DNA from: Paracoccus sp. (in: a-proteobacteria)
GTDB lineage: Bacteria; Pseudomonadota; Alphaproteobacteria; Rhodobacterales; Rhodobacteraceae
Assembly (NCBI RefSeq): GCF_035556475.1
Contig: NZ_DATMFA010000022.1
Coordinates: forward strand, 72-64,071
Length of the DNA: 64,000 bases
Reading direction: 5' to 3'
Shown: piece by piece, positions 8,760 to 64,000 of the stretch
Layout of the letters: each line of letters starts with the position of its first letter
Position numbering within the stretch: position 1 is the stretch's first letter
Position numbers and translations under genes: made by a program
The notes under the pieces: generated by a model
What the model was told of the DNA's origin: nothing
The model's database searches: none
The model's input: only the letters and a program-made list of their open reading frames with translations

Positions 8760-8765
8760 TAATAT

Positions 8766-13673: not shown

Positions 13674-13696
13674 GAAGAAACCCCTTGTCGATTCGA

Positions 13697-13743
13697 CTTC
13701 AGGATGGAACATCTCGGCGGAGGGCATCATGCAGGATTGGCCA
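13697..13743 (-). promoter_or_regulatory. Divergent promoter region between bcoC-like gene and its regulator
   Basis: Same motif arrangement as 8714-8759. Confidence 0.45.
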
Positions 13744-13749
13744 ATGGTC

Positions 13750-15665: not shown

Positions 15666-15773
15666 GACTCGATCCTCGTTCGTCCCGGCTTGTAAGGACA
15701 GGCCTTCGTTTCCGACAGGTGCGACTGGCTCTGACAAGTTGACAGAAGGCGCCAGGCTTTCTAATGTCCCATC

Positions 15774-15809
15774 GTTCGGTATATTGATTACTGTTCATAA
15801 TATCGAACA
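15774..15809. promoter_or_regulatory. Tandem IclR-type operator (two imperfect inverted repeats)
   Basis: GTTCGGTATATTGATT-ACT-GTTCATAATATCGAAC between divergent blcR and gabD. Confidence 0.65.
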
Positions 15810-15879
15810 CAACAGCCTGTCAATGAACTTCTATCGCCGCCACGCCTTTGGCTTCATCCGCTCCAACCGGGAATACACC

Positions 15880-46276: not shown

Positions 46277-46285
46277 GGACATGAG

Positions 46286-47647: not shown

Positions 47648-47671
47648 ACCTTTCAACGACATGAGCATCCT

Positions 47672-48937: not shown

Positions 48938-48944
48938 GGCCGCG

Positions 48945-50123: not shown

Positions 50124-50218
50124 CCGCTTGTCCTGCCCGCAGGCGCGGCTTCAACGATCGCCGTGTTGAACGGCCGCACCGGGGCAATGGGGTCAGTCAG
50201 TATTTGATTTCCAAATTC

Positions 50219-50233
50219 TATCGGCCGCCGATA
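50219..50233. promoter_or_regulatory. Palindrome upstream of the CoA-transferase operon
   Basis: TATCGG-CCG-CCGATA. Confidence 0.3.
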
Positions 50234-50309
50234 TCATACCCGGCTATATTCCCCTGATCCCGCCGCCTGACCTAACCTGTCGGAAACCAGAACCAACAGG
50301 GGTAACGAC

Positions 50310-51512
50310 ATGGGCGCGTTGGACGGCATTACGGTACTCAGCTTCAACCATTTTCTCTCAGGACCGGCCGCGGCGCAGTTCCTTGGCGACATCGGCGCGG
50401 ATGTCATCGCGGTCGAGCCGCTGGGAGGGGCGTTCCAGCGCAACTGGGCCGTCGGCAACCGTTTCGTGGATGAAACCAGCGTCAATCACATGACGACCGG
50501 GCGCAACAAGCGCTCGATCGCGGTGGACCTGAAGTCGCCCGACGGGCTTGCCGCCGTGCGCCGCCTGATCGCGCGCGCCGATGTGGTGATGGAAAATTTC
50601 CGCCCCGGCACTCTGGAGAGGCTGGGCCTGTCCGAGGCCGCGATGCGCGCGATCAACCCGCGTCTGATCTATGCGGCGACCACCGGTTACGGCGGCGACG
50701 GCCCCTATCGCGACCGGCCCGGTCAGGACGTGCTGCTGCAGGCGATGTCCGGCCTTGCGGCCCATACCGGTAGTATGGAAAGCGGCCCGGTCGCCATCGG
50801 AACGGTTCCGATCGACCACCATGCCGCCGCGCTGACCGTGGCGGGGATCCTGGCCGCGCTCTACGAGCGTGAGCGGACCGGCGAGGGCAAGCGCATCGAA
50901 GTCAACATGCTGCAGGCTGCGCTGGACCTGCAGGGGGAATCGATCACCGCATGGATGAATGGCGCGGATCGCAGCGGTCCGCGTGGTCAGGCCGGAATGG
51001 CCAACTGGTTCAGCCCCGCGCCCTACGGAATTTACGCGGTCGCGGACGGTCATCTGATGATCTCGATGTCGAAACCCGCCGATCTGGCCGAGGCGCTGAA
51101 CCTGCCAGAATTGGCGGGGTTCAGCGAAAAAGACGGCTTCGACAGGCGGGCCGAGATTTCCACGCTGGTCGCGGGCGGCATGGCCGTGCTGACTGCGGCA
51201 GAGGCGCAGGAGCGCCTGGCGCAGGCCGGCGTCTGGCACGAATTGGTGCGCGATTACGACAGCCTTCGCGGCAACCCGCAGATCGAGCATCTGGGCGCCT
51301 TCATCGACGCCCGGACGCAGGGCGGCTCGCCCATGACGCTGCTGTCGCATCCGATCCGCTATGACGGCGCGCTGCCGGAGGTGCGGCTGACGCCGCAACC
51401 GCTGGGCGGCCAGACTCGTGAGATCCTGGCTGAGGTCGGGCTGAGCCAGGACGAAATCGACGCGCTGATCACCAGCGGGGCTGTCGCACAAACCGAAAAG
51501 ATGCGGGGCTGA
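50310..51512 (+). CDS. CaiB/BaiF family III CoA transferase
   Basis: GADVIAVEP, RNKRSIAVDLKS, ADVVMENFRPG, RPGQDVLLQAMSG with the catalytic Asp. Confidence 0.9.
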   Translation: MGALDGITVLSFNHFLSGPAAAQFLGDIGADVIAVEPLGGAFQRNWAVGNRFVDETSVNHMTTGRNKRSIAVDLKSPDGLAAVRRLIARADVVMENFRPGTLERLGLSEAAMRAINPRLIYAATTGYGGDGPYRDRPGQDVLLQAMSGLAAHTGSMESGPVAIGTVPIDHHAAALTVAGILAALYERERTGEGKRIEVNMLQAALDLQGESITAWMNGADRSGPRGQAGMANWFSPAPYGIYAVADGHLMISMSKPADLAEALNLPELAGFSEKDGFDRRAEISTLVAGGMAVLTAAEAQERLAQAGVWHELVRDYDSLRGNPQIEHLGAFIDARTQGGSPMTLLSHPIRYDGALPEVRLTPQPLGGQTREILAEVGLSQDEIDALITSGAVAQTEKMRG

Positions 51513-51513
51513 G

Positions 51514-52674
51514 ATGGATTTCGCGATTTCCGATGAAATGAAGATGGTGACCGAGGCGATCGGTCGCTTCGTGCGCGAAAAGGTCCAGCCGCTCGAGCAG
51601 GAGACCGAGGAGAACGCCCGCATTCCTGCCGACAAGCTGGCTGCGGTCCGGGCCGAGGCGCAGTCCCTGGGCTTCTATGCGCTGAACATGTCCGAAGAGG
51701 TCGGCGGCGGCGGCCTTGGCGTGCTCGACATGTGCCTTGTCGAGGAGCAGCTGGGCCAGACGTCGGATGCGCTGATCCGGCGCATCTTCGGGCAGGTTTA
51801 TCCGATGCTGGAACGCTTCGAGGGGCCGCTGCGCGACAAATACCTGTATCCGACCGTCAAGGGCGACAAGATCTGCGCCATGGCGATCACCGAGCCGGGT
51901 GCGGGTTCGGACGCGGCCGCGATCAAGACCAATGCCTGTCTGGACGGCGGCAAATGGGTGCTGAATGGCACCAAGCATTTCATCTCGGACGGGGACATCG
52001 CTGATTACGTCATCGTCATGGCGGTAACGGATGCCGAAAAGCGGGCGCGCGGCGGCATCAGCCTGCTGATCGTCGACAAGGACACGCCCGGCTTCAAGGT
52101 CACGCGCAGCCAGCCGATGATGGGCCATCGCGGCTATGGCCATGCCGAGCTGACATTCGACGATGTCCGCATCCCGAGGGAAAACGTGCTTGGTCCAGTG
52201 GGCGAGGGCTTCAAGGTGATGATGGCCAATGTCGGGGGCATTCGCCTCGGCCATATCGGGGCGCGCGCCGTGGGCATGGCCAGCCGCGTGGTCGAGCTGA
52301 TGCGCCAGTACGCCGCGACACGCCAGCAGTTCGGCCAGCCCATTGGTGACTTCCAGATGATCCAGCAGATGATCGCCGACAGCGCGATGGAGATCTTCGC
52401 CACCCGCATGATGGTGCTGAACACCGCGTGGGAGCAGGACCGGGGCATGGACCCGCGCGACAAGGTCAGCATGGTCAAGGTGCAGGCGTCGGAGATGCTC
52501 GGCCGCGTGGCCGACCGGGGCATTCAGGTCTTTGGCGGCTACGGCTTCACCAAGGAACTGCCGCTGGAGCGGATCTATCGCGATGCCCGCGTCACGCGGA
52601 TCTATGACGGCACCTCCGAGGTGCATCGCATGCTGATCGCCCGCTCGGTCATCAAGCGCGGCCTTGCCCTGTGA
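51514..52674 (+). CDS. Acyl-CoA dehydrogenase
   Basis: AITEPGAGSD, NGTKHFIS, RQQFGQPI, QVFGGYG, RIYDGTSEV. Confidence 0.92.
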   Translation: MDFAISDEMKMVTEAIGRFVREKVQPLEQETEENARIPADKLAAVRAEAQSLGFYALNMSEEVGGGGLGVLDMCLVEEQLGQTSDALIRRIFGQVYPMLERFEGPLRDKYLYPTVKGDKICAMAITEPGAGSDAAAIKTNACLDGGKWVLNGTKHFISDGDIADYVIVMAVTDAEKRARGGISLLIVDKDTPGFKVTRSQPMMGHRGYGHAELTFDDVRIPRENVLGPVGEGFKVMMANVGGIRLGHIGARAVGMASRVVELMRQYAATRQQFGQPIGDFQMIQQMIADSAMEIFATRMMVLNTAWEQDRGMDPRDKVSMVKVQASEMLGRVADRGIQVFGGYGFTKELPLERIYRDARVTRIYDGTSEVHRMLIARSVIKRGLAL

Positions 52675-52685
52675 AGGATCGGAAC

Positions 52686-53090
52686 ATGAGCGAACTTCCC
52701 GCCGTGGGTCAGTCGATGACCTTCCGCAAGACGATGACCGTGGCCGAGCAGGGCTTTTTCACCGGCATCTCGGGTAATATGGGCCGCGCCCATGTGGACC
52801 GCGCATTCGCGCGCAGTCAGGGCCAGCCCGACATGCTGGTCTTTGAACTTGCGGCAGCCGGCCTTTTCTCCACCGCTTTCAGCCGTCTCGCTGGTCCGGG
52901 CTTCCGCCTTGGCGGGATCGAGCTGCGCTTTGCCCGCGCCTTTCCCGTCGGCAGTTCGCTCGAGGCGACGGCGACGGTCGCCGAAAGCGCGGCGGATGGC
53001 GTCCGCTTCGACCTTTCCGCGACGCTCGACGGGATCGAGGTGATCACGGGCAAGGCGCGCCTCGTGCCGCTGGACGCATCCGATGTATGA
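52686..53090 (+). CDS. MaoC-like hot-dog protein with a degenerate hydratase motif
   Basis: SGNMGRAHVD in place of TGDxxPxH; LRFARAFPVG strand; possible GTG start at 52671. Confidence 0.65.
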   Translation: MSELPAVGQSMTFRKTMTVAEQGFFTGISGNMGRAHVDRAFARSQGQPDMLVFELAAAGLFSTAFSRLAGPGFRLGGIELRFARAFPVGSSLEATATVAESAADGVRFDLSATLDGIEVITGKARLVPLDASDV

Positions 53091-53517
53091 CATCCGCAAC
53101 ATCGACGAGTTTTCAGTCGGCGACCGGGTCAGCGTCGCCAAGACCGTGACCGAGGCCGATGGTGCGATGTATATCGCCGCGACCGGCGATTTCGGGCCGG
53201 TCCATGTGGATGAGGGCTATGCCTCGACCACGCGCTTTGGCGAGCGGCTGGCCCCCGGCATCCTTGTCGCGGGGATCTGCACCTCGGTCCTGACGGCTGA
53301 ACTGGTGGGCACGGTCGGCGTCTCGATCCGCGACTGTTTCTGGTTCACCGGCGCGGTCCGCTATGGCGACACGCTGACATTCGAGATCTGGATCTCGGCC
53401 ATCGACCCCGAGAACCGGACCGTCGACTGGCAGGCGAGTGCCCGGAACGAAGAGGGCGTCGAGGTGCTGAAGGCCGATGCCACACTCAAATTTCCAAGAA
53501 AGAAGGTCATCGCATGA
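53083..53517 (+). CDS. MaoC family (R)-specific enoyl-CoA hydratase
   Basis: ATGDFGPVHVD...TRFGERLAPG...FTGAVRYGDTL. Confidence 0.85.
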   Translation: MYDIRNIDEFSVGDRVSVAKTVTEADGAMYIAATGDFGPVHVDEGYASTTRFGERLAPGILVAGICTSVLTAELVGTVGVSIRDCFWFTGAVRYGDTLTFEIWISAIDPENRTVDWQASARNEEGVEVLKADATLKFPRKKVIA

Positions 53518-54443
53518 TTTCCGGCAAGGATCTTGGCGGCATTACCGTCGCAACCGTGCTTCCCTTTCATGAGGACGGCGCCGTCGACTGGGCGGGGTAC
53601 GAGGGCGTGCTGGCCCATTGCGCGCGCCCGGAGACGACGGATTGCGTCTTCGTGAACGGCCATGCCGGCGAGGCAACGGCGCTGACCGCTGAGGAACGCG
53701 CCGAGGTCATCCGCCGCACCCGCGACCATATCGGCAAGGATCGCGTCCTGCTGGCCGGGGTGGTCCCGACCGGCTACCCCGAGGCGATTGCGCAGGCCGA
53801 GGCCGCGCGGGAGGCCGGCGCCGATGTCGCGGTGATCTTCCCGGCCGAAGCGCTTGGCGGCGGCAACGCGAATACGGCCGCAGGCGTAAAGTTTATCGAG
53901 AAGCTGGGTGCGGAGCTGCAAATGCCTCTCTCGATCTTTCAGTTTCCGATCGCTTCGGGCTTTGGCTTCTCGACACCGGTTCTCGCCGAGATGGCCCGGA
54001 TCCCGGAGGTCGTCGCCATCAAGGAAGGCTCGGCCACGCTTCTCGCCTATGACGAGAACCGGCGCGCGGTGAAGGCGGCGGCACCCGATGTTGCCATTCT
54101 GCCCTCGAATTTCCACTGGTTCTTTGCGCAGGTGGCGCTTGGCGGCGATGGCATCCTGTCGGGGCTGGCAAGTCTTGTGCCGGACTTGCTGTCGGATCTT
54201 TGGAAAGCCTCGCAGGACATGGACCTTGGCCGGATGCGCGCGGCGAATGAGCGGCTCTATCCGGTGGTGCGTGCGGTCTACGGTCCTGCGCCCGTGGTCG
54301 ACATGCATACGCGGATGAAGGACGGGTTGCGCCTGATGGGCGTGATCAGGAATTCTGCCCCGCGTCTGCCCTTGCTCAAGCAATCCGATGATGTCGTCGA
54401 GGGCGTCCGCAAGGCGCTGGTCTCGGCAGGTGTGCTGCAATGA
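53514..54443 (+). CDS. DapA/NAL-superfamily class I aldolase, non-canonical (NGHAGE)
   Basis: VLPFHEDG.VD, NGHAGE, IFQF at the Tyr position, AIKEGS Schiff-base Lys. Confidence 0.8.
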   Translation: MISGKDLGGITVATVLPFHEDGAVDWAGYEGVLAHCARPETTDCVFVNGHAGEATALTAEERAEVIRRTRDHIGKDRVLLAGVVPTGYPEAIAQAEAAREAGADVAVIFPAEALGGGNANTAAGVKFIEKLGAELQMPLSIFQFPIASGFGFSTPVLAEMARIPEVVAIKEGSATLLAYDENRRAVKAAAPDVAILPSNFHWFFAQVALGGDGILSGLASLVPDLLSDLWKASQDMDLGRMRAANERLYPVVRAVYGPAPVVDMHTRMKDGLRLMGVIRNSAPRLPLLKQSDDVVEGVRKALVSAGVLQ

Positions 54444-55351
54444 ACGGCGGGCTTTACGCCGCCACGATCTGCACGATGACGTCCGACGGCCAGATCGACG
54501 CGGCGGCGCAGGAGAGGCATTTCGCCGCCGTGATGGCGACGCCGGGTCTGGACGGGCTGCTTCTGAACGGCCATGCGGGTGAGGGCGTTTTCACCTCGCG
54601 CGAGGAACAGGCGCAAATCGTGCGGATCGCGCGTGAGGTTTCGCCGAAGGCGCGCATCCTTGCCGCGGTCAGTTCGGAATCGACCATGCAGGCAGGCAAG
54701 GATGCCGAGGCCGCGCTGCATGCCGGTGCCGATGCGATCATGGTCTTTGCGCCCTTTTCATGGACGCTCGGGGCCGACCCGCGCGCGATCATCGCTCATC
54801 ATCGCGGCATCGCCGAGGTGGCGGGCGCGCCGATCTATCTGTTCCAGGGTTCGGTCGGTTCGGGAAAGCTGGCCTATACCCCTGACGTGCTGCGCGCGCT
54901 TCTCGACATCGAAGCCGTGGCTGGCATCAAGGAAGGCAGTTGGGAAACCCGTGCCTATGAGGTGACGCGTCGGATCACCCGCGCCGCGCGGCCTGATGTC
55001 GCGGTCATGGCTTCGGGGGACGAGCACCTTTATACCTGCTACGTGATCGGCAGCGATGGCAGCGCGGTCAGCCTTGCCGCCGTGGTTCCCGAGCTGATCG
55101 TGGCCCTTGATCGCCATGTCCGCGAAGGCCGCCACGCGCAGGCGCTGGCGATCCATGAGGCACTGTTCGACTTCGCGCGCCTCGTCTATGCCGCCCCCGG
55201 TCACATGGCCGCCGCGCGTCTGAAGGCCTGCCTGGTCGAGCTGGGCCGCATCCCCGACGATGCCTGCCGCGCACCGACCCCGCCGGTGCTGCCCGAAGAA
55301 CGCGCGGCGTTGATGGCCGCCCTGCGTCCCTGTCTGGAGCTTTCGCCGTGA
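54440..55351 (+). CDS. Second DapA/NAL-superfamily protein (NGHAGE)
   Basis: NGHAGE, LFQG, GIKEGS; ATGA-coupled to its paralog. Confidence 0.8.
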   Translation: MNGGLYAATICTMTSDGQIDAAAQERHFAAVMATPGLDGLLLNGHAGEGVFTSREEQAQIVRIAREVSPKARILAAVSSESTMQAGKDAEAALHAGADAIMVFAPFSWTLGADPRAIIAHHRGIAEVAGAPIYLFQGSVGSGKLAYTPDVLRALLDIEAVAGIKEGSWETRAYEVTRRITRAARPDVAVMASGDEHLYTCYVIGSDGSAVSLAAVVPELIVALDRHVREGRHAQALAIHEALFDFARLVYAAPGHMAAARLKACLVELGRIPDDACRAPTPPVLPEERAALMAALRPCLELSP

Positions 55352-55635
55352 CGGAACTGCAATCCCATATTGTCTTCGTCGATGTCGACCCCGAGCACGA
55401 GGCGGCCTTCGACGATTGGTACGACAACGTCCACCTGCCCGAGATCCTTGCTTGCCCCGGCTGGCTGGATGCACGACGCGAGAAATGCCTCGAGGGCGGC
55501 GCGCGACATGTCGCGATCTATACGATCACCGGCCCCGAGGTCTATGAAACGCCCGAGTTCAACGCTATCAAGGGGTTCGGGCCTTTTGCAGACAAGGTTC
55601 GGAACTTTCACCGCATCCGCCTGACGCGAAGCTGA
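55348..55635 (+). CDS. Small dimeric alpha/beta-barrel protein (EthD/DUF4286-like)
   Basis: FDDWYDNVHLPEILACPGW..ARR....RHVAIY. Confidence 0.6.
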   Translation: MTELQSHIVFVDVDPEHEAAFDDWYDNVHLPEILACPGWLDARREKCLEGGARHVAIYTITGPEVYETPEFNAIKGFGPFADKVRNFHRIRLTRS

Positions 55636-55666
55636 GGGGATGCACGCAAGGGAACGCGCGCGGGAC

Positions 55667-56584
55667 ATGCTGAACCTCAGGCAGCTCGAAATTCTGCGCG
55701 CGGTCGTCCAGTACCGCACCACCGTGGGCGCGGCCGAGCAGCTGGGGATGTCCCAGCCCTCGATTTCGAACACCATCCGACATGTCGAGACCTTGCTCGG
55801 GTTTCCGCTGTTCGAGCGGCAGTCGAACCGGCTGATCCCGACCGAGGAGACGATGATCCTCCTCGAGGAATCCGAGCCCCTCTTCCTGCTGCGCGACGCG
55901 GTCAATCAGCGCGCCGCCGACCTGCGCGCGGGACGGATCGGGCGGGTCCGCATCGCCTCGACCGCCGAGATCAGCGAGGCGGTGCTGCCCCGCGCCATCG
56001 CCGACTATGCGCGCCAATATCCCCAGATCCAGATTTCGCTTGAGACCCGACCGCTCGACAGCGTGCTTCAGGTCGTCGAGAACGGCCTGGCGGACGTGGC
56101 CTTCGTCATCTCGGCCTATGACCGGCAGGCGCTTGACTTCGAACTGATCGCGGAACTGCGCGCGGTCTGCATCTGCCCCGAGGGTCATCCTCTGGCGGCG
56201 CTGGCGCAGGTCACGCCGCGCGATCTGGAGGGCCATCCGCTGGTCGGGCCCCGCACTGCGAACCGGGTCGGTATGATGATCGCGGATTGTTTCCACGAAT
56301 GCGGGATGGAATACCGCCCTTCGATCGAAACCCGCTTCATGAACGCGGCCTCGCGCATCGTTGGCGAGGGCTGGGGCGTTGCTGTCGTGGACGAGCTTTC
56401 GGCCCATGTTGCGCTGCGCCCCGGGCTGACAGTTCGTCCCTTCCAGTCGCGGCTGCGCTTCAATCTGGTGGCCGCAACGCTGCGGACCAAGACCCTTTCG
56501 CGCCAGACCCGACGCTTCATGAAAGCTGTATCGGACCGGGTGAAGATGCAACTGGCAGAAATGCACGCTGCCTCGACCCCCTAG
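55667..56584 (+). CDS. LysR family regulator
   Basis: LRQLEILRAV...AAEQLGMSQPSIS...LFERQSNRLIPT; alternative start 55640. Confidence 0.92.
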   Translation: MLNLRQLEILRAVVQYRTTVGAAEQLGMSQPSISNTIRHVETLLGFPLFERQSNRLIPTEETMILLEESEPLFLLRDAVNQRAADLRAGRIGRVRIASTAEISEAVLPRAIADYARQYPQIQISLETRPLDSVLQVVENGLADVAFVISAYDRQALDFELIAELRAVCICPEGHPLAALAQVTPRDLEGHPLVGPRTANRVGMMIADCFHECGMEYRPSIETRFMNAASRIVGEGWGVAVVDELSAHVALRPGLTVRPFQSRLRFNLVAATLRTKTLSRQTRRFMKAVSDRVKMQLAEMHAASTP

Positions 56585-57348
56585 TTGCGCAGGCTGGCGA
56601 CCGCCTGGGCGCCCCCTGCGACCAGCAGGTTCGTGTCATTCGTCGCGACGATCAGCGAGGCGCCGGGTGCATGGCTTGCGACCAGATGCGCCGGCAAGCC
56701 CATGACCCCGAATGCCTTGGCGTGGCGCGCGGCGGCACCGGCGATCCGCCCAAAGGCAGCCAGCACCGCCGGGTGTTCGACCTGTCCTCTCAGCCCCAGA
56801 CCGTCGGCAAGGTCGTTCGTTCCGATGACGAGCATGTCGATCCCGTCGACGGCGGCGATTTCGTCGACCGCCCCCAACCCCGCCGCGCTTTCGATCATTG
56901 CCGCGATGCTGACCTCGCGCCCTGCCTGAACGCAAAAGTCCAGGGCAGGCAGCAGCGCATAGTCGAGTGCCGGCACCGGTCCGGGAATGCTGCGCCCGCC
57001 AAGGGGCGCAAAGCGGCAGGCGCGTACGATCTCGCGCGCTTGGGCCACGCTGTCCACATGCGGCACGATGAGCCCGGTTGCTCCGCAATCGAAGACGCGC
57101 GCGAGGTCGCCCGACCTTGGCCCGCCGACCCGGGCCCACACCGGAAAGCCTGCGGCGATCCCCGCCGCCGCCACCTGCCCGAGTGCATCCATGCCCAGCG
57201 GACCATGTTCCATGTCCACGACGGCAAAGTCGAATCCGGCACCACGCGCCAGCAGAACGGCCTCGGGCCGGCCCAGAATGCAAAAGGCGATGCCAATGCG
57301 CGGCGTATCGGGATTCTGTTTTTGCTCAGCATTTAGGCTGTTGGCCAT
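56581..57348 (-). CDS. HpcH/HpaI-family class II aldolase
   Basis: FDFAVVDMEHGP, GLIVPHV, FAPLGGRS, MIES, IGTNDL. Confidence 0.8.
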   Translation of the reverse strand: MANSLNAEQKQNPDTPRIGIAFCILGRPEAVLLARGAGFDFAVVDMEHGPLGMDALGQVAAAGIAAGFPVWARVGGPRSGDLARVFDCGATGLIVPHVDSVAQAREIVRACRFAPLGGRSIPGPVPALDYALLPALDFCVQAGREVSIAAMIESAAGLGAVDEIAAVDGIDMLVIGTNDLADGLGLRGQVEHPAVLAAFGRIAGAAARHAKAFGVMGLPAHLVASHAPGASLIVATNDTNLLVAGGAQAVASLRN

Positions 57349-57608
57349 TGCGTGTCCAAACCTCGGATTGGGGAACCCAAGGCTAACCCGATTGTCCGGG
57401 GATTATTCGCTGAAAGCGCGCGTTAAATACTTTGTATCAGGATATTTATAGTTGCGTGACTTCTTGAAGCCCTTTTTCCCGATAACCTATGAGCCATGGC
57501 AAAGAGCGCGCAAGCGCCGCAACCCGCCGACAGGTCGAAGGGGAATCAAGGATGGTCCATCCGTCAATTGCAGATACCTGCGTATCAGAAACTGCGCGCA
57601 ATCCATTG

Positions 57609-58106
57609 ATGCGCGTTGCCAATCGGGGACTCTGGATGCTGCGGCGCCTCGTCGACGGCGTCCTTCTGGCGCTGCTTGGCTATATGGCTCTGGCAATCCT
57701 CGCGCAGGTGGTAGGACGTTATTTTTTCAACTATTCGATCGCCTGGAGCGAGGAGACGGCGACCTTCGCACAGGTCTGGCTGACCCTCCTCGGGGCGGGT
57801 GTCGCGATGCGCTATAATCAACATGTCGGCGTGGATTTCCTGATCCTGAAGGCGCCGGTCGGGGTCCAGCGTATCGTCAACGGCGTGGCCTTCCTGCTGG
57901 GGATATGGTTTCTCGGCGTGGTGGTGGTCGGCTCGCTTTCGATGTTGTCGATCGGGCTGATGGTGAAATCGCCCGCATTGCGCCTGCCGATGGCGATTCC
58001 CTATTCGGCCCTGCCGGCGGGATTTGCCTATTTCCTGATCGAATTCGCGATCACTACCCTGCCGCGCGTCCTGCGCCCGGGTGCAACCACAAGCCAGGGG
58101 GACTGA
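57609..58106 (+). CDS. dctQ: TRAP transporter small permease
   Basis: QVVGRY, WSEE, HVGVD, SPAL..PM...Y; start uncertain (57609 or 57552). Confidence 0.85.
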   Translation: MRVANRGLWMLRRLVDGVLLALLGYMALAILAQVVGRYFFNYSIAWSEETATFAQVWLTLLGAGVAMRYNQHVGVDFLILKAPVGVQRIVNGVAFLLGIWFLGVVVVGSLSMLSIGLMVKSPALRLPMAIPYSALPAGFAYFLIEFAITTLPRVLRPGATTSQGD

Positions 58107-58108
58107 TC

Positions 58109-59389
58109 ATGGGCGTCGCACTGTCCGGCTTTCTCGTCCTTCTGGTTTCGGGAATGCCCATTGTCCTCGCGCTCGGCATCGCGGGGTTGATCGCGATCGA
58201 GCTGACCACCGGCGCACCGATTTCGATCGTCGCGCAGCGCATCTATGGCGGGATCAGTTCCTTCACGCTGATGGCGATCCCTTTCTTCGTCGCCTCGGGC
58301 CTGCTGATGGAGGCGGGTGGCATCGCGCGGCGCTTCGTCGCGCTGGCCGAGGCGCTGGTCGGCTGGATCACCGGCAGCCTCTATATGGTCGCGATCGTGA
58401 CCGGGACCGGGCTTGCCGCGATCTCGGGCTCAGGCTCGGCGGATACCGCAGCGATCAGCGCGGTCATGGTCCCCGAAATGAAAAAGCGGCGCTATAATAT
58501 TGATCTTGCCGCCTCGGTCATCGCGGCATCGGGCGCGCTGGCCTCGATCATTCCGCCCTCGATCGTGATGATCGTGATCGCGATCACGTCGAACCAGTCG
58601 ATCGGCGCAATGTTCCTTGGCGGCGTGGTGCCGGGCATGATGGTCATGATCTTCCTGATGGTCGGCTGCTGGCTTTACAGCCGCCGCCAGGGCGAGGTCT
58701 ATCGCGACGCCCGGGCCTTCACGCTGTCCCGGCTGTGGCGCGGCTTCGTCGATGCGGGACCGGGGCTGATGATCCCACTGATCGTGGTCGGCGGCATCGT
58801 CGGCGGCGTCTTCACCGCGACCGAGGCCGCCTGCGTCGCGCTGTTCGCCACGCTGATCATCACCATGCTGATCTATCGCGAGATCAGGCCTTCGGACCTG
58901 CCGCGTATTATGCTGAAGGCGATCAGCCTGTCGGCGACGGTGCTGATCATTGTCGCGACCGCCAGCGTATTTACCTGGGTCATCGCGACGGCCGGCCTGC
59001 CTGCCATGCTGAAAAACTGGCTGACCGGGATCACGCAAAGTCCCTGGGTATTCCTGCTGATCGTCAACCTGCTGCTGCTGGTCGTGGGCATGTTCATGGA
59101 AAGCATCTCGGCCGTGCTGATCCTGCTGCCGATCCTGTCGCCGATTGCGCAAAGCTTCGGAATCGACCCGGTGCATTTCGGGATCATCATATCGCTGAAC
59201 CTGTCGATCGGCCTGATCACGCCCCCCTATGGCATCTGCCTTTACGTCGCAGCCAGCGTTGCCGGCCGGCGGATCGAACAGGTCTCGCGCCAGATCTGGC
59301 TGCCGCTGGGGGCGATGCTGATCGTGCTGGGCCTCGTCACGTATGTGCCGGCGATCTCGCTCTGGTTGCCCGACGCCTTCATTCGCTAG
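58109..59389 (+). CDS. dctM: TRAP transporter large permease
   Basis: LMAIPFF, AISGSGSADTAA, IIPPSIVM, FTATEAA, DPVHFG, ITPPYG. Confidence 0.93.
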   Translation: MGVALSGFLVLLVSGMPIVLALGIAGLIAIELTTGAPISIVAQRIYGGISSFTLMAIPFFVASGLLMEAGGIARRFVALAEALVGWITGSLYMVAIVTGTGLAAISGSGSADTAAISAVMVPEMKKRRYNIDLAASVIAASGALASIIPPSIVMIVIAITSNQSIGAMFLGGVVPGMMVMIFLMVGCWLYSRRQGEVYRDARAFTLSRLWRGFVDAGPGLMIPLIVVGGIVGGVFTATEAACVALFATLIITMLIYREIRPSDLPRIMLKAISLSATVLIIVATASVFTWVIATAGLPAMLKNWLTGITQSPWVFLLIVNLLLLVVGMFMESISAVLILLPILSPIAQSFGIDPVHFGIIISLNLSIGLITPPYGICLYVAASVAGRRIEQVSRQIWLPLGAMLIVLGLVTYVPAISLWLPDAFIR

Positions 59390-59412
59390 CCATAACCAAC
59401 AGGGAACAAGAC

Positions 59413-60372
59413 ATGCTGAATCGACTGTTTGCCTCTGCCGTCCTTCTCGCCATCGTTGCGGGTCCGCTTGCGGCGCAGGAATACAAATTCAAGATCGGCC
59501 ATACCAATGCGTCCGACGAGGTGCAGGACAAAGGCCTGCAGAAGATGCGCGAGCTGCTTGAGGCCAAGACCAACGGCGCGGCGACGCTGGAGATCTTTCC
59601 GGGCGGCCAGCTTGGCGACGAATCCCAGTTGATCGAGGGGGTGATGCTTGGCAGCATCGACATGTCGATGACCTCGAACGCGCTGCTGTCGAACTATGTC
59701 GAGGATTACAAGGTCTTCGACATGCCCTTCCTGTTTCCCAGCATTGGCGAGTTGGGCGGCAAGATCGACGCGAACTGGGATCTGATGGAGGCATCTGCCA
59801 ACAATTCCGGTTTCCAGCTTCTGGGCGTCCATTCCTCGGGGCTGCGCCACCTGATGACCAAAAAGCCGGTCGAGGGCATCGGCGACCTGGCCGGGCTGAA
59901 GATCCGCACCATGCAGAACCCGGTTCATGTCGAGGCCTGGCGCGCCTATGGCGCGAACCCGACGCCGATGTCCTACAACGAGCTTTACGGCGCATTGCAA
60001 TCGGGCGTCGTGGATGGGGCAGAGGCCGCCTCGACCGGCTATGACGGGATGAAGTTCTATGAGGTCGCGCCTGATTTCGCGCAGGTCGGCTGGCTCAACA
60101 TGACCGCGCCGGTGGTGATGCAAAAGGGCGCATTCGACGCGCTGCCCGAAAACATCCAGGCCGCGCTGATGGAGGCAGGCCGGGAAGCCGCGGCATGGGA
60201 GCGCGGCTATGTCGAAGAGCAGGAGCAGCCGCTGATCGACAAGTTCAAGGCCGCCGGTGCGAATGTCACCCAGCCCGACCCAGCCCCGTTCCGCGAGGCG
60301 TCGAAGCCACTTTATGCAAGTCAACTCAGCACGCCCGGCCAGCAGGCGCTGCTGAAGGCCATGACCGAATAA
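59413..60372 (+). CDS. dctP: TRAP substrate-binding protein
   Basis: Signal peptide, IFPGGQLG, DMPFLF, GLKIRTM (carboxylate-binding Arg), ANPTPMSYNELYGALQSGVVDGAE. Confidence 0.92.
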   Translation: MLNRLFASAVLLAIVAGPLAAQEYKFKIGHTNASDEVQDKGLQKMRELLEAKTNGAATLEIFPGGQLGDESQLIEGVMLGSIDMSMTSNALLSNYVEDYKVFDMPFLFPSIGELGGKIDANWDLMEASANNSGFQLLGVHSSGLRHLMTKKPVEGIGDLAGLKIRTMQNPVHVEAWRAYGANPTPMSYNELYGALQSGVVDGAEAASTGYDGMKFYEVAPDFAQVGWLNMTAPVVMQKGAFDALPENIQAALMEAGREAAAWERGYVEEQEQPLIDKFKAAGANVTQPDPAPFREASKPLYASQLSTPGQQALLKAMTE

Positions 60373-60375
60373 GTC

Positions 60376-60407
60376 CGATGCGGCGTCCCGTCAGGGGCGC
60401 CGCATCG
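60376..60407. terminator. Hairpin after dctP
   Basis: CGATGCGGCGTCCC-gtca-GGGGCGCCGCATCG. Confidence 0.65.
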
Positions 60408-60429
60408 CGATGGCCAGGGGGCAGGCATT

Positions 60430-60530
60430 TTTGACACAGCCATCCGCAACGAGACCCTCATCATCGCCTGCGACCGCCACCGCGCCCAGTTCGTCGCGCT
60501 GTCGGCGATATGATTGACATCGGTGCCGAT
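60430..60530 (+). pseudogene. Possible N-terminal remnant of a dihydropyrimidinase/allantoinase-type amidohydrolase
   Basis: FDTAIRNETLIIACDRHRAQ resembles FDTVIRNGT.VTASD..RAD; followed by a stop/frameshift and a MIDIG-like segment. Confidence 0.4.
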
Positions 60531-60588
60531 GCCGATCCGACACTCCCGGATCCGGCGCGACGGCGAAGTTTGCTGCGGAAGTGCGGGC

Positions 60589-61257
60589 CTAGGCGTCAGG
60601 GGCGATCCGCGAGACGAGGTCTTCCATCATCGCCGCGTTCTGCATGCGCAGGATCGCCTCTGCCGCCACGTTGTCATGGCGGCGAAGGGCGTCGATCAGC
60701 AATTGCATCTCCTCGGCCATGACTCGCCTGCGGCCGGTGCCATAGCCATAGCCGCGGCGGAAGGCGAAGATGATGTCCCAGCCGCGCAGAAAGACGCGCA
60801 GCGCCTCGCGGTTGCCGCCGAACTCGACCAGCTTGGCGTTGAAGTCGCGGTTGACGCGGATCGCCTCCAGATCCTCGCCATGGTCCAGATGGTCGCGATA
60901 TTCCTGCGCCAACGCCTCAAGCGCGCGAATACGCTCCAGCGTCAACGTGGCCATGCCGCGCCTGACCGCGCAGATGCGCAGGTCGGTGTTCAGCTCGAAC
61001 AGGTCGGTGATATAGGCGCGGTCCAGCTTGCGGACCGTCGCGCCCCGGTTAGGCTCGATCTGGACCAGCCCTTCACCTTCAAGCTTCCGCAGCGCCTCGC
61101 GCAGGGGCATAGTGGACAGGCCAAGCCGCTGGGCCAGTTCTGCCGTCTTCAGCCGCTCGCCCGGCGCCATCTGCCCCGAAAGGATCGCCTCGCGGATCAG
61201 ACGGGTCGCCTGATCAGCCGAGTTCAGCGCGCTATCGAGCGGCTCGTTCATGATCAC
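60589..61257 (-). CDS. GntR family (FCD) regulator
   Basis: IREAILSG.MAPGERLK...LGLSTMPLREALRKLEGEGLV...PNRGA.V; GTGA-coupled to maoC. Confidence 0.9.
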   Translation of the reverse strand: MIMNEPLDSALNSADQATRLIREAILSGQMAPGERLKTAELAQRLGLSTMPLREALRKLEGEGLVQIEPNRGATVRKLDRAYITDLFELNTDLRICAVRRGMATLTLERIRALEALAQEYRDHLDHGEDLEAIRVNRDFNAKLVEFGGNREALRVFLRGWDIIFAFRRGYGYGTGRRRVMAEEMQLLIDALRRHDNVAAEAILRMQNAAMMEDLVSRIAPDA

Positions 61258-61688
61258 CCCCGCTTCCGAATCAGCGAGACATGCTCGGCGTCGATCACAG
61301 CCTCCTCGCCACGCAGAAGGCGCACGGCCTCGGTGACGACACCGCGCCCCTTGCTTTCGCGCTTGGCGGTGAAATCCATCTTGACATGGATCACGTCACC
61401 CGCAGCCAGCGGCTTCAGGAAGCGGACCTTGTCCCAGCCGAGCGAGGCGATCGAGCTTTCGTCGTAAAGATGTAGTTCGGTCTTCAGCCCCTCCATCAGC
61501 GCCAGACCGTATAGCCCATGAGCGATGATGCCGGGAAACCCGGCATCGCGCGCATAGTCGGCATCGGTGTGGAGGGGATGATGATCCCGCGTCAGACGGC
61601 AGAAGTCGGCGATGTCGGCCTCGGTGATGCGATGGGCGGGCGTGGTGTAGCTGCTCCCGATGTCGACATCCTCATAGAACAGGCTCAT
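61254..61688 (-). CDS. MaoC family dehydratase
   Basis: FYED..IG, ITEADIADF..LTRDHHPLHTD, IIAHG, VRFLKPL..GD.I. Confidence 0.87.
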   Translation of the reverse strand: MSLFYEDVDIGSSYTTPAHRITEADIADFCRLTRDHHPLHTDADYARDAGFPGIIAHGLYGLALMEGLKTELHLYDESSIASLGWDKVRFLKPLAAGDVIHVKMDFTAKRESKGRGVVTEAVRLLRGEEAVIDAEHVSLIRKRG

Positions 61689-62839
61689 GCGTATTGCTTT
61701 CCGACTTGTCGCGCGATGATCATGCGCTGGATCTGGTTTGTGCCTTCATAGATCTGGCTCAGCCGCACGTCACGGAAAAGCCGCTCGACGCGGAACTCGC
61801 GCGAATAGCCATTGCCGCCATGGATCTGCAGCGCGTTGGAAATATGGACCTGCGCCATGTCGGTGGTGAAAAGCTTGGCCTGCGCCGCCTCAAGCGCGAT
61901 GGGCTGACCGGCGTCGTAAAGCCGCGCGGCATGATGGATCAGCAGGCGGGCGGCGGCGATGTCCTTGGCCATGTCGGCGATCATGAACTGGATTGCCTGA
62001 AACTCGAAGATCGGCTTGCCGAACTGTCTGCGCTCATGCGCATAGGCGATCGCGTCCTCCATCGCCGCCTGCGCCATGCCAAGCGCCATCGACGACATCA
62101 TCAGGCGCGAGAAATTGAAGTTCTCCATCGCCATCTTGAAGGCGCCGTTCTCGGGCCCGATCCGGTTCGCGATCGGCACGCGAACCTGGTCGAGGGCGAT
62201 CATGCATTCGGCAAGGCCGTGCATTCCCAACAGTTCCTCGGACTTGCCGCGATGGACGCCGGGGCGGTCGGTCTCGACCAGAATGCAGGAAATCCCCCTG
62301 TGGCCCGCCGCGGGATCAGTCTTGGCAAAGACCATGATCACATCCGCGACCTGCCCGAACGTGACCCATGCCTTCGAGCCCGTGATCACATACTCATCCC
62401 CCTCGCGACGGGCGACGGTATTCATGCTGGCGACGTCCGAGCCATTGTCGGGCTCGGTCACCGCGGTCGCGGGAATCACACTGCCGTCAAGGATGCCGGG
62501 GATCAGGGCCTTGTGCTGGGCGTCGCCGTGATGGTTCAGGAATAGCGCCGCTTCGACCGGGATCGCGAAGGCATTGCCGACCGCGCCCGAGCCGCGCGCG
62601 ATCTCCTCCATCGCGATGCAGGCGGTCAGCGCGTCCATGCCGGCACCGCCGGCCTCCTCGGGCAGCGCCACGCCGAAAAGGCCAAGTTCGGCCAGTGCGA
62701 GATAGGCATCGCGGGGGAAGGCGTTCTCACGGTCGATCCGGGCGGCGATGGGCGCGACGACCTCATCCGAGAGCTTGCGCGCAGTGTCGCGCACCATGCG
62801 CTGCTCGTCACTCAAGAAGTGATCCAAAATAATCTCCAT
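61685..62839 (-). CDS. Acyl-CoA dehydrogenase
   Basis: AVTEPDNGSD, ITGSKAWVT, RRQFGKPI, QIHGGNGYS, IYEGTNQIQ. Confidence 0.92.
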   Translation of the reverse strand: MEIILDHFLSDEQRMVRDTARKLSDEVVAPIAARIDRENAFPRDAYLALAELGLFGVALPEEAGGAGMDALTACIAMEEIARGSGAVGNAFAIPVEAALFLNHHGDAQHKALIPGILDGSVIPATAVTEPDNGSDVASMNTVARREGDEYVITGSKAWVTFGQVADVIMVFAKTDPAAGHRGISCILVETDRPGVHRGKSEELLGMHGLAECMIALDQVRVPIANRIGPENGAFKMAMENFNFSRLMMSSMALGMAQAAMEDAIAYAHERRQFGKPIFEFQAIQFMIADMAKDIAAARLLIHHAARLYDAGQPIALEAAQAKLFTTDMAQVHISNALQIHGGNGYSREFRVERLFRDVRLSQIYEGTNQIQRMIIARQVGKQYA

Positions 62840-62869: not shown

Positions 62870-63235
62870 TCAGGTCGAGGGGATTCCGGCATGGAAGGCG
62901 TCTTCTGGGACGCGGTCCATAAAGTAGATGATGACGTTCTTGGCATCGGTCCCATAGGCCTCGGCTACAGCGGCAGTGATCAGCCGCGCGGCCTCGCCCT
63001 TGGCTTCGGCATCACGTGGGAATGCGTGGATTTTTATGAATATGCGGAAAATTTCGGCGGTTTTGCCGTGTTTTCCTGCATGTCCGTAGGAATAGTCGGG
63101 GGTCGAATTATAATAGCAGGTGACGATTTCAGGCTTGATCGCAAAGGCCTGGCACAGACCATCGGTCATTGAGCGGGTCGCAAGTTCGCGAATTTCCGGG
63201 CTTGGGCCGGAATCGGTGACTTCGATGAAAGGCAT
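62870..63235 (-). CDS. Tautomerase superfamily protein (Pro1, double beta-alpha-beta)
   Basis: MPFIEV N-terminus; 121 aa with two repeats (..K.E.ARLITAAVAEAYG....NV.IYF). Confidence 0.7.
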   Translation of the reverse strand: MPFIEVTDSGPSPEIRELATRSMTDGLCQAFAIKPEIVTCYYNSTPDYSYGHAGKHGKTAEIFRIFIKIHAFPRDAEAKGEAARLITAAVAEAYGTDAKNVIIYFMDRVPEDAFHAGIPST

Positions 63236-63359: not shown

Positions 63360-64000
63360 ATGAAATTTCGCGGCAGCTATACCGTCTGCGTGACGCCCTT
63401 TGACGGGCAGGGGCAGCTGGATCTGGAGGCTTTGCGCCGCTATGTCGACTGGCAGATCGACGAGGGGGTCCATGGCCTGATCCCCCTTGGCAGCACGGGC
63501 GAATTCCTGTCGCTGACCCGTGACGAGCGCGCGGCCGTGGCCGAGACGACCATCAGGCAGGCCGCAGGCCGGGTACCCGTCCTGATCGGCACTGCCGCCG
63601 AATGGACCGACGAGGCTGTCGCGCTCAGCCGCGAGGCCGAAAGCCTTGGTGCGGATGGCGTGATGCTGGTGCCGCCCTATTACTCCTCGCCGACCGAGGC
63701 GGAACTTCTGGCTCATTTCACCCGCGTGGCCGAGGCGATCTCGATCCCGGTGATGCTCTACAACAACCCGTTCACGGCGAATGTGGATCTGACCGCCCCT
63801 CTGGTCGCGCGCCTCTCGGAGGTCGAGAACATCAGCTACATCAAGGACACGTCCAAGAACGTCCATCGCGTGACCGAGCTTCTGGATCTGTGCAAGGGCC
63901 GTATGACGGTTTTTGCGGGCTATTACCCGTGGGAGAGCTATCTGGCGGGGGCTGAGGGTTACAGTTCGGTCATGTCCAACATCTCGCCCTCGCTTTCGGC
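63360..64000 (+). CDS. DapA-family class I aldolase/lyase (3' truncated by window edge)
   Basis: VTPFD, PLGSTGEF, PYY, LYNNP, YIKDTS; ATG at 63360 is not listed in the ORF track because the stop lies outside the window. Confidence 0.88.
   Translation, partial: MKFRGSYTVCVTPFDGQGQLDLEALRRYVDWQIDEGVHGLIPLGSTGEFLSLTRDERAAVAETTIRQAAGRVPVLIGTAAEWTDEAVALSREAESLGADGVMLVPPYYSSPTEAELLAHFTRVAEAISIPVMLYNNPFTANVDLTAPLVARLSEVENISYIKDTSKNVHRVTELLDLCKGRMTVFAGYYPWESYLAGAEGYSSVMSNISPSLS

Follow-up and report, generated by a model that had tools for sequence, protein, structure and literature searches.

In the steroid side-chain unit of Mycobacterium tuberculosis (ChsE1-ChsE2/ChsH1-ChsH2/Ltp2), the reactions of an acyl-CoA dehydrogenase (ACAD) and a heteromeric MaoC hydratase are followed by retro-aldol cleavage of the hydrated coenzyme A (CoA) ester in place of oxidation and thiolysis. 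In the demethylation of dimethylsulfoniopropionate (DMSP) by DmdB-DmdC-DmdD, CoA activation, an ACAD step, and hydration at the heteroatom-bearing β-carbon release the heteroatom without a 3-hydroxyacyl-CoA dehydrogenase (HADH) or thiolase. In the branched-dicarboxylate cluster of Pseudomonas aeruginosa (PA0878-PA0886), Ict, PA0879 (methylsuccinyl-CoA dehydrogenase), Ich, and Ccl turn methylsuccinate or itaconate into pyruvate and acetyl-CoA, and IctPQM serves as the importer (PMC9875883; PMC12599236). Here we describe a gene cluster that starts at position 50310 of a 64,000-nucleotide stretch of a Paracoccus sp. contig (NZ_DATMFA010000022.1; the whole stretch is hereafter called the window) and that, by analogy of its logic, is closest to the P. 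aeruginosa cluster among characterized systems. An initial annotation had read positions 50310-60372 as a catabolic system coupling CoA-dependent β-oxidation steps to three pyruvate-type aldolases. Our analysis leads us to propose, tentatively, an uncharacterized two-module CoA catabolic supercluster, in which a hydrated intermediate would be cleaved by dihydrodipicolinate synthase (DHDPS)-like lyases instead of undergoing oxidation and thiolysis.

The cluster is built from at least three uncharacterized enzyme subfamilies. Public annotations of its genes are generic ("family protein" or "hypothetical"), as are the PGAP names in Thioclava, and we found no paper, solved structure, or curated model that assigns them a function. 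None of the core proteins reached an NCBIfam equivalog cutoff.

Gene organization and conservation of the core

The first gene encodes a family III (CaiB/BaiF) CoA-transferase (CoAT; 400 aa; 50310..51512; Pfam CoA_transf_3, 314 bits). It is followed on the same plus strand by genes for an ACAD (386 aa; 51514..52674; Pfam ACAD N, M, and C domains) and for two hot-dog proteins, MaoCa (134-139 aa; 52671 or 52686..53090, the gene callers placing the start at 52686; Pfam MaoC, 25.7 bits against a cutoff of 27) and MaoCb (144 aa; 53083..53517; Pfam MaoC, 61.6 bits). Next in order are two non-canonical DHDPS-like proteins, DH1 (309 aa; 53514..54443) and DH2 (303 aa; 54440..55351), a DUF4286-like dimeric α+β-barrel protein of 95 aa, p95 (55348..55635), and a LysR-family regulator (314 aa; 55640..56584; Pfam HTH_1 and LysR_substrate). 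The junctions from CoAT to LysR measure, in order, +1, -4 (or +11 with the alternative ATG), -8, -4, -4, -4, and +4 nt; six of the seven are overlaps of 4-8 nt or a gap of 1 nt, and the p95-LysR gap is 4 nt. An HpcH/HpaI gene on the minus strand converges with LysR, overlapping it by 4 nt, and diverges from the gene for the importer subunit DctQ across a spacer of 287 bp (53% GC). Open reading frame (ORF) listing together with Pfam and NCBIfam scans placed the genes named by the initial annotation where it had put them, and the junction distances bear out its description of largely translationally coupled genes.

To assess conservation, loci were collected by a scan with a DH1 alignment, one genome per GTDB species, which yielded 80 loci, and genes were counted in these by tblastn with all proteins of the window; the counts are lower bounds because of the 10-kb limit on the flanks and the shortness of some contigs. 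CoAT, ACAD, MaoCa, MaoCb, and DH1 were found together and colinear in 70 of the 80 loci, down to a DH1 identity of 52% and with differing flanking genes, an arrangement far beyond chance. The five core genes were accompanied by p95 in 67 loci. Individually, p95 was present in 69/80 loci and DH2 in 68/80, and LysR was found in 49/80, usually at the same position. The view that these genes act as one conserved functional unit is thus upheld by synteny. The loci span Paracoccus, Haematobacter, Salipiger, Rhodovulum, Roseibium, Donghicola, Jiella, about 29 Bradyrhizobium species, Chelativorans, Aquamicrobium, Phyllobacterium, Rubrivivax, a metagenome-assembled genome (MAG) of Gammaproteobacteria, and Paludibaculum (Acidobacteria), and look-ups based on the ACAD added the core in Xanthobacter, Paraburkholderia, a Burkholderiales MAG, and an Acetobacteraceae contig. 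Among named genomes, that of Paracoccus broussonetiae is nearest, its DH1 being 94% identical.

Neither an HADH nor a thiolase was detected in the cluster or among the gene families recurring in related loci, in agreement with the lack of both that had been claimed for the Paracoccus genes. The sole HADH-type gene of the window (4763-6229) lies in a separate carnitine cluster 44 kb away. TRAP or ATP-binding cassette (ABC) importers and regulators of the LysR, GntR, or LacI type accompany the cluster genes everywhere, and this association implies that the cluster is catabolic.

Active-site variations of the CoA enzymes

Residue roles in ACAD, MaoC, DHDPS, and HpaI proteins were taken from general family knowledge. 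The best NCBIfam match of CoAT was the succinate-glutarate CoA-transferase model (189 bits against a cutoff of 750), and the succinyl-CoA:mesaconate transferase model gave 152 bits against 700; judged by these models, CoAT is the equivalog of no named enzyme. Its Asp169 is invariant in 71 orthologues, and some relatives carry CoAT in two tandem copies.

The ACAD, which is the most conserved gene of the cluster (66-96% identity), matched the structure 1ukw with 256 bits. Its motif RIYDGTSEV aligned to QIYEGTNEI of 1ukw and 5ol2, which places an Asp at the position of the catalytic Glu. This Asp was found in the Y-D-G-T motif of 73/73 orthologues, in place of the Glu of the Y-E-G-T motif that marks medium- and short-chain-type acyl-CoA dehydrogenases. 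Moreover, Arg89 on the helix of the acyl pocket is invariant among orthologues and would fit a polar or anionic acyl substituent. Its identification with Arg94 of glutaryl-CoA dehydrogenase was considered and dropped, as that mapping crosses a three-residue gap and is uncertain.

The two hot-dog proteins differ in their catalytic residues. In MaoCa, the hydratase-2 motif G-D-x-N-P-x-H is replaced by G-N-M-G-R-A-H, the Asp being Asn in 70 of 72 orthologues and the His mostly Tyr, whereas the GDFGPVH motif of MaoCb, containing both the catalytic Asp and His, is invariant in 73 orthologues. The invariant motif of MaoCb and the replaced Asp and His of MaoCa imply a catalytic/non-catalytic pair, for which ChsH1-ChsH2 and HadAB are precedents. 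MaoCa is probably a non-catalytic partner subunit, and MaoCb may be the catalytic (R)-hydratase subunit of a MaoCa/MaoCb heterodimer. Hence the proposed sequence of CoA activation, an ACAD step, and an (R)-hydratase-type MaoC step agrees with the protein families and with the MaoCb motif.

A non-canonical clade of DHDPS-like proteins

DH1 and DH2 matched Pfam DHDPS with 92 and 111 bits, respectively (cutoff 22), and share 32% identity with each other. The best equivalog match of both was NCBIfam dapA, with 104 bits for DH1 and 88 bits for DH2 against a cutoff of 206. The Schiff-base Lys (Lys161 of Escherichia coli DapA) is kept, as K170 of DH1 and K164 of DH2 align to the corresponding Lys of 3cpr and YagE. 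The other catalytic positions have changed. The G-[TS]-[TS]-G-E motif reads N-G-H-A-G-E in both proteins, with His and Ala at the positions of Thr44 and Thr45. The catalytic Tyr133 of Y-N-x-P is lost, DH1 having F142-Q-F-P and DH2 having L-F-Q-G in the window; across DH2 orthologues this position is Phe in 39 and Tyr in 29. The equivalent of Tyr107 (P-Y-Y) is also missing, with P-A-E in DH1 and P-F-S in DH2. These replacements are conserved: N48-G-H50-A-G-E53, Q143, and K170 of DH1 are invariant in the 80 loci and F142 is Phe in 79 of them, and the NGHAGE motif and K164 of DH2 are invariant in 68 orthologues. Of the three pyruvate-type aldolases proposed in the initial annotation, therefore, the HpcH protein described below is canonical, whereas DH1 and DH2 retain the Schiff-base Lys and replace the Tyr-Thr-Tyr triad. 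With this proton relay lost, aldolase chemistry is not assured for the two proteins.

Structural prediction of DH1 by AlphaFold2 (AF2; pLDDT 93) gave a DHDPS fold, with TM scores of 0.84-0.89 to DHDPS structures at 20-27% identity, and no solved structure exceeded about 27% identity to DH1. In the Protein Data Bank (PDB), the E. coli Y133F, T44, and Y107F variants are represented solely by engineered mutants (1s5w, 1s5v). For the DH1/DH2 clade, searching 1.84 billion representatives with a profile gave at least 189 clusters (50% identity) at E <= 1e-30. Among the 109 full-length top sequences, the Schiff-base Lys was present in 108, the Tyr position was Phe in 87, and the Thr44 position was His in 71; the clade also shares a conserved C-terminal R-x-K motif. 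By these sequence features, DH1 and DH2 belong to a large uncharacterized clade of the DHDPS superfamily.

The sole Pfam match of p95 was DUF4286, below the cutoff (21.9 bits against 25.8), and NCBI labels its orthologues DUF4286. Its AF2 model (pLDDT 95) has ABM, EthD, and Dabb-type barrels as Foldseek neighbours. The product of 55348-55635 had initially been labelled EthD; however, it had no Pfam EthD match, and its likeness to the EthD-family structure 2ftr, which ranks fourth among the fold matches with a TM score of 0.73, is at the level of the fold only. Fold searches for DH1 and p95 confirmed the folds and pointed to no specific function, and DUF4286 appeared in the literature searched only in unrelated surveys.

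Accessory aldolase and importers

The HpcH/HpaI protein (255 aa; 56581..57348, minus strand; Pfam HpcH_HpaI, 89 bits) scored far under the cutoffs of the NCBIfam models GarL (102 bits), HpaI (102 bits), and RhmA (74 bits), and no NCBIfam model of CitE-type or citramalyl-CoA lyases matched it. Its segments VDMEH, waRV, mIEs, and tnDL align with 3qz6 and 4tv5, the His, the Arg, and the metal-binding Glu and Asp being kept. By these residues, HpcH is assigned as a canonical class II (metal-dependent) aldolase, accessory to the core; it was found in 29/80 loci and in 0/29 Bradyrhizobium loci.

The plus-strand genes for the subunits of a tripartite ATP-independent periplasmic (TRAP) transporter (TRAP-1), the coordinates of DctQ and DctM being those of the contig gene calls, encode together the small membrane subunit DctQ (57636..58106; Pfam DctQ, 93.5 bits), the large membrane subunit DctM (58109..59389; Pfam DctM, 371 bits), and the solute-binding protein DctP (59413..60372; Pfam DctP, 236 bits; NCBIfam TRAP_S1, 241 bits, above its cutoff). 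The best solved relatives of this DctP, 4mhf and 4mij, matched with only 152 bits. No ligand could be inferred for the TRAP binding proteins from their PDB relatives, which at about 150-168 bits bind diverse sugar acids and other compounds. The TRAP system, counted by DctM, was present in 40/80 loci and in 0/29 Bradyrhizobium loci, where a polar-amino-acid-type ABC system takes its place; the binding protein of the latter is of the generic "polar amino acid" type, from which no ligand could be inferred either. Thus, HpcH and TRAP are present in the window as described initially, but they are not core parts of the system, being limited to 29 and 40 loci and absent in Bradyrhizobium.

A second CoA module

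The system extends past position 60372 with a second CoA module, which the earlier description left out together with a third DHDPS-like protein, a tautomerase-like gene, and a second TRAP system. The DctP gene is followed on the minus strand by genes for a GntR/FCD regulator (60589..61251; Pfam GntR and FCD on the source contig) and a canonical single (R)-hydratase, MaoC2 (144 aa; 61254..61688; Pfam MaoC, 80 bits), whose RDHHPLH motif contains the catalytic Asp and His and which alone matched NCBIfam RipB/Ich, with 57 bits against a cutoff of 340. These are joined, still on the minus strand, by genes for a canonical ACAD of the short-chain type, ACAD2 (384 aa; 61685..62839; Pfam ACAD domains), with a QIYEGTNQI motif invariant in 50 orthologues, and for a putative two-repeat tautomerase-superfamily protein of 121 aa, p121 (62870..63235). 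The translation of p121 carries Pro1 (MPFIEV...); it matched Tautomerase and Tautomerase_2 weakly (the latter with 22 bits against a cutoff of 28) and also matched a design with the 4-oxalocrotonate tautomerase (4-OT) fold. Divergent from the genes from p121 to GntR is the plus-strand gene for DH3 (291 aa; 63360..64000, clipped by the end of the window), a canonical class I aldolase of the DHDPS/N-acetylneuraminate lyase (NAL) type. On the source contig, where DH3 is complete, it retains all class I residues (GSTGE, PPYY, YNNP, and the Schiff-base Lys), and a DH3 orthologue scored 206 bits with dapA and 171 bits with the "HpaI-NOT-DapA" model. Beyond the window on the same contig (locus L093, 4206-9876), the order DH3-DctP2-DctQ2-DctM2-DUF3830-AMP-ligase (498 aa, BaiB-like) completes module 2. 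A 317-aa ORF at 60514-61467 on the plus strand, opposite GntR and MaoC2, had no family match and is most likely a shadow ORF of high-GC DNA.

In at least 54/80 loci, one or more of ACAD2, MaoC2, and p121 are encoded no further than 10 kb from the core; p121 was found in 44/80 loci, and GntR with MaoC2 and ACAD2 in 25. Between ACAD2 and MaoC2, Bradyrhizobium and others carry a gene for a Pct/FadX-like class I CoA-transferase. Loci with module 2 only, each with its own DH1-type gene, were found in Thioclava kandeliae (L036), Bradyrhizobium (L047 and L048), and Rubrivivax (L049 and L059). In Thioclava sp. GXIMD2076, the modules reside on separate non-mobilizable megaplasmids, module 2 on p2 (0.69 Mb) and module 1 on p3 (0.58 Mb), and each has its own NGHAGE DHDPS-like gene. 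The p3 module consists of CoAT-ACAD-MaoCa-MaoCb-DH1-p95 and ABC genes, and that of p2 comprises TRAP, DH3, a tautomerase-like gene, ACAD2, a CoA-transferase, MaoC, GntR, and a DH1-like gene. For the terminal step, these minimal modules offer no candidates other than the DH1-type protein and p95 or the tautomerase-like protein. The locus is, in sum, composed of two parallel and separable modules that share an architecture of importer, CoA activation, ACAD, MaoC hydratase, DHDPS-like protein or proteins, and a small isomerase-fold protein.

Proposed route and alternative explanations

From the observed gene content, order, coupling, and conservation, together with families and active-site residues, we infer the following chemical steps. 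TRAP-1 would import a small polar carboxylate that probably bears either a second carboxyl group or another polar group, which may contain nitrogen. The family III transferase would form its CoA thioester, the Asp-base ACAD would set a 2,3-double bond and pass electrons to electron transfer flavoprotein, and the MaoCa/MaoCb heterodimer would hydrate the product, with MaoCb as the catalytic and MaoCa as the structural subunit. The Lys-dependent DH1 and DH2, aided by p95, could then cleave the hydrated intermediate, releasing a 2-oxo acid (in the simplest case pyruvate) together with a short acyl-CoA or formyl-acyl-CoA, from which CoA would be returned via the transferase. HpcH, where present, and the canonical DH3 may split 4-hydroxy-2-oxo-acid intermediates, and module 2 (60589 onward) may handle a sister substrate by like steps. 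As the minimal modules leave only a DH1-type protein with p95 or a tautomerase-like protein, lyase termination by DHDPS-like proteins is the best-supported end of the pathway, and retro-aldol cleavage in place of thiolysis would be plausible.

Several observations weigh against this route and keep our preference for it tentative. The Tyr-Thr-Tyr proton relay of characterized DHDPS/NAL enzymes is missing in both DH1 and DH2, and to our knowledge no DHDPS-family enzyme acts on a CoA ester. The transporter type varies by lineage among TRAP, polar-amino-acid-type ABC, and sugar-type ABC (Acuticoccus) systems, and the recurrent genes for dihydropyrimidinase, DUF3830, DUF6282, and ureidoglycolate-lyase-like proteins are not accounted for. 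A literature search for the gene combination, DUF3830, DUF6282, and hypothetical ureido-CoA esters returned nothing relevant. The DNA, which corresponds to a 78-kb soil-metagenome contig (ENA ERZ27256359 k141_361298), was found only in soil metagenome DNA runs, with no RNA among them. Furthermore, Schiff-base retro-aldol reaction, direct cleavage of a tertiary 3-hydroxyacyl-CoA, and elimination of urea or an amine would look alike at the level of sequence, and each of the last two, like a more specific form of the first, gives an alternative to be weighed.

Elimination of a heteroatom, which we regard as unlikely, would start from a substrate whose β-carbon carries a ureido, amino, or other leaving group, such as N-carbamoyl-β-amino acids or N-carbamoyl-aspartate formed by ring opening of the dihydropyrimidine, dihydroorotate, or hydantoin type. 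The hydroxyl group would be placed on the heteroatom-bearing carbon, and DH1/DH2, p95, or a ureidoglycolate-lyase-like protein would expel urea or an amine, giving a carbonyl without an NAD-dependent dehydrogenase, as in DmdC/DmdD, and accounting for the lack of HADH. Several genomic contexts speak for this proposal. A dihydropyrimidinase gene was present in 34/80 loci (735 bits against an NCBIfam cutoff of 647), within the operon in Aquamicrobium, Chelativorans, and Phyllobacterium and between TRAP-1 and GntR in most Rhodobacterales; the DctP-GntR spacer of the window (60373-60588; 216 bp) is the site of this 469-aa gene in most related Rhodobacterales. A ureidoglycolate-lyase-like gene directly follows p95 in the Burkholderiales MAG and adjoins the cluster in Xanthobacter, and DUF3830 (cyclophilin-like), DUF6282, and a BaiB-like AMP ligase recur in relatives. 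DUF3830, the amino-acid-type binding proteins of several lineages, and a hydroxynitrile lyase among the structural neighbours of p95 point in the same direction, and the recurrent accessory genes may hint at cyclic-amide or ureido precursors, without naming a substrate. However, dihydropyrimidinase is absent from the window and from P. broussonetiae, its closest genome, and occurs in only 2/29 Bradyrhizobium core loci. Elimination leaves as many as four aldolase-family proteins without a clear role, seems costly given that simple hydrolytic decarbamoylases exist, and would involve CoA esters that were not found in the literature searched.

A route of the itaconate or branched-dicarboxylate type appears rather improbable. 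Here, a 2-substituted succinate or glutarate would yield a tertiary 3-hydroxyacyl-CoA, and DH1/DH2, standing in for a CitE-type lyase or an aldolase of the Ltp2 type, would cleave this CoA ester directly to acetyl-CoA and a 2-oxo acid; His50 and Lys170 would take part, but no Schiff base would form. The layout parallels Ict/PA0879/Ich/Ccl/IctPQM, the best CoAT matches are succinyl-CoA-dependent dicarboxylate transferases, and DH1 overlaps MaoCb. The heteromeric MaoC also resembles the ChsH1-ChsH2 hydratases, which are generally known to make tertiary alcohols for their partner aldolase Ltp2. The loss of the Schiff-base proton relay, with His50 and the C-terminal R-x-K gained and conserved, would suit such a mechanism, but the retention of the Schiff-base Lys in 108/109 sequences of the clade favours imine chemistry. 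A CoA-ester lyase with a DHDPS fold is without a known example, and the amino-acid-type transporters and dihydropyrimidinase are left unexplained.

A 2-oxo-dicarboxylate pathway, for which 2-oxoadipate had served as the initial example, is in our estimate more doubtful. A thioester at the distal carboxyl group would lead, by desaturation and hydration, to a 4-hydroxy-2-oxoacyl-CoA, on which DH1/DH2 would form a Schiff base at C2 and catalyze retro-aldol cleavage to pyruvate and 3-oxopropanoyl-CoA, while the tautomerase-like and barrel proteins would handle 2-oxo-enoate/dienol tautomers. Such a pathway would employ the conserved Lys, invariant here, through which all characterized DHDPS-family chemistry proceeds, in each case on 2-oxo acids; a minimal module needs just CoAT, ACAD, MaoC, DH1, and a small protein, and an invariant Arg in the acyl pocket of ACAD would be in keeping with it. 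The putative tautomerase-superfamily protein, the HpaI-like HpcH, and the "HpaI-NOT-DapA"-like DH3 are typical of pathways for 2-oxo-enoates and 4-hydroxy-2-oxo acids. Nevertheless, the equivalents of Tyr133, Thr44, and Tyr107 are missing, and a 2-oxo diacid is a poor match for the polar-amino-acid-type binding proteins seen in Bradyrhizobium, Paraburkholderia, and Paludibaculum. Nothing in the data is specific to a C6 compound or gives a reason for two modules, and the dihydropyrimidinase, DUF3830, and ureidoglycolate-lyase-like neighbours are not explained; the 2-oxoadipate example found no specific support.

Finally, a juxtaposition of independent small units (CoA unit, aldolase genes, and transporters) on a catabolic island, with no single pathway, would agree with the variable or displaced HpcH, TRAP, LysR, and DH2 among lineages, the separate Thioclava replicons of the two modules, and the unrelated catabolic clusters flanking the region, but is very improbable given that CoAT-ACAD-MaoCa-MaoCb-DH1-p95 stay contiguous and mostly overlapping across phyla, that DH1-type genes stay with the CoA module despite shuffling, for example within a Paraburkholderia ABC operon, and that module 2 keeps to within 10 kb of the core in most loci.

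Returning to the two-module CoA supercluster with cleavage by DHDPS-like lyases, a cleavage role, if true, would provide a function for a large DHDPS branch, the Asp-base ACAD subfamily, the DUF4286 family, and a cluster of about 20 genes. Lyase-terminated CoA pathways, known for itaconate and steroid side chains, would gain a further member, and a nutrient imported by dedicated TRAP/ABC systems would be identified. The carriers include many soil and marine α- and β-proteobacteria, among them Bradyrhizobium, Paracoccus, Rhodovulum, Salipiger, Roseibium, Xanthobacter, and Paraburkholderia. A bolder conjecture, to which we give little credence, is that the NGHAGE/Phe-Gln clade forms a new class of Lys/His-dependent lyases acting on CoA-bound intermediates in a widespread variant of β-oxidation that dispenses with NAD and thiolase and employs the Asp-base ACAD, the heteromeric MaoC, and the DUF4286 protein; such a variant would act on small acids that contain nitrogen or derive from cyclic amides, for example ring-opened compounds of the dihydropyrimidine or hydantoin type.

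Flanking regions and other catabolic units

Upstream of the first gene, a consensus scan found a sigma-70-like promoter match (50208..50237, plus strand; 9/12 positions) inside the 186-bp spacer 50124-50309; it is weak evidence, five such sites being observed in the region against 2.5 expected. A terminator scan of the region performed no better than on shuffled sequence.

The stretch directly upstream of the cluster (44918-50123) codes for luciferase-like monooxygenases of 452, 453, and 392 aa and for an SfnB/DszC-like protein with the ACAD fold; an SBP_bac_5 gene comes before these. The unit probably scavenges sulfur or amines, and it was rejected as part of the system because it is not kept beside the cluster in the closest genome. 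Positions 469-13751, mostly on the minus strand, hold a carnitine/γ-butyrobetaine-type cluster that looks like a known kind of system, with genes for an HADH-like and thioesterase fusion (4763-6229), SBP_bac_5, BKACE (7803-8690), an AraC/DJ-1 regulator, a crotonase, an ADP-forming CoA ligase, and an ACAD. Further catabolic units are represented by an aldehyde dehydrogenase (553 aa; 15664-17325), an FAD_binding_3 monooxygenase (543 aa; 23770-25401), and an ACAD-fold protein (34987-36189).

Two observations concern the surroundings of the core in other genomes. In Xanthobacter flavus, insertion sequence (IS) fragments separate the core from an itaconate-like unit just upstream (1377-6729 of its locus). 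That unit encodes an IclR regulator and, as enzymes, a thiolase, a transferase of the acetyl-CoA-hydrolase type, an ACAD, a double hot-dog hydratase, and a CitE-like lyase; its proximity may be fortuitous or reflect a functional neighbourhood. In about 13-15 Bradyrhizobium loci, the region downstream of DH2 (about 14.7-19.4 kb) has four additional genes, which code for NMT1-type ABC components, a protein resembling class II aldolase/adducin, and a luciferase-like monooxygenase of 434 aa, as assigned by sequence inspection and clustering only.

Comparison with characterized systems

Ectoine, carnitine, itaconate, and the standard reductive pyrimidine pathway were each considered as the identity of the cluster and rejected, as their defining enzymes are absent. 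The DMSP pathway, compared by description only, differs in having a crotonase-type hydratase and an AMP ligase and no DHDPS-like genes. With the lower pathway of homoprotocatechuate or meta-cleavage, the locus shares an HpaI-like class II aldolase and a DapA-like relative of "HpaI", and p121, with its Pro1, is a candidate counterpart of the tautomerase-superfamily isomerase; it lacks a ring-cleavage dioxygenase, a decarboxylase/hydratase of the fumarylacetoacetate hydrolase (FAH) family, and a semialdehyde dehydrogenase, and CoA chemistry is central to it.

DH1, DH2, and DH3 share the fold and Schiff-base Lys of the DHDPS/NAL superfamily, which includes DapA, NanA, the YagE/2-keto-3-deoxygluconate (KDG) aldolases, HOGA, KdgD, and DapA-like HpaI. 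Unlike these enzymes, DH1 and DH2 have NGHAGE, Phe-Gln in place of Tyr-Asn, no equivalent of Tyr107, and a C-terminal R-x-K. The steroid side-chain unit, again compared by description only, resembles the core in its ACAD followed by one catalytic and one non-catalytic hot-dog subunit. Ltp2 of that unit is an SCP2-thiolase-like aldolase that docks to a DUF35 domain, and neither domain was found among the cluster genes or their recurrent neighbours; also unlike the steroid unit, the substrates proposed here are small polar acids entering via TRAP or ABC systems.

Several features set the locus apart from the P. aeruginosa itaconate cluster. It has no CitE-type citramalyl-CoA lyase, HpcH being GarL/HpaI-like and optional, and no PrpD or glyoxalase genes; its hydratase is a two-gene heteromer, its ACAD has an Asp base, and its core includes the non-canonical DHDPS-like pair and the DUF4286 protein. 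Orthologues of Ict, Ich, and Ccl were not recovered, and no equivalog scores were reached for Ich or for mesaconate or glutarate transferases. Nonetheless, the comparison with the Pseudomonas cluster made at the outset is fair in logic (PMC9875883). Both systems have a family III CoA-transferase, an ACAD, a MaoC-type hydratase, and a dedicated TRAP importer, and in P. aeruginosa a lyase replaces HADH and thiolase and yields pyruvate, which sets a precedent for the route proposed here.

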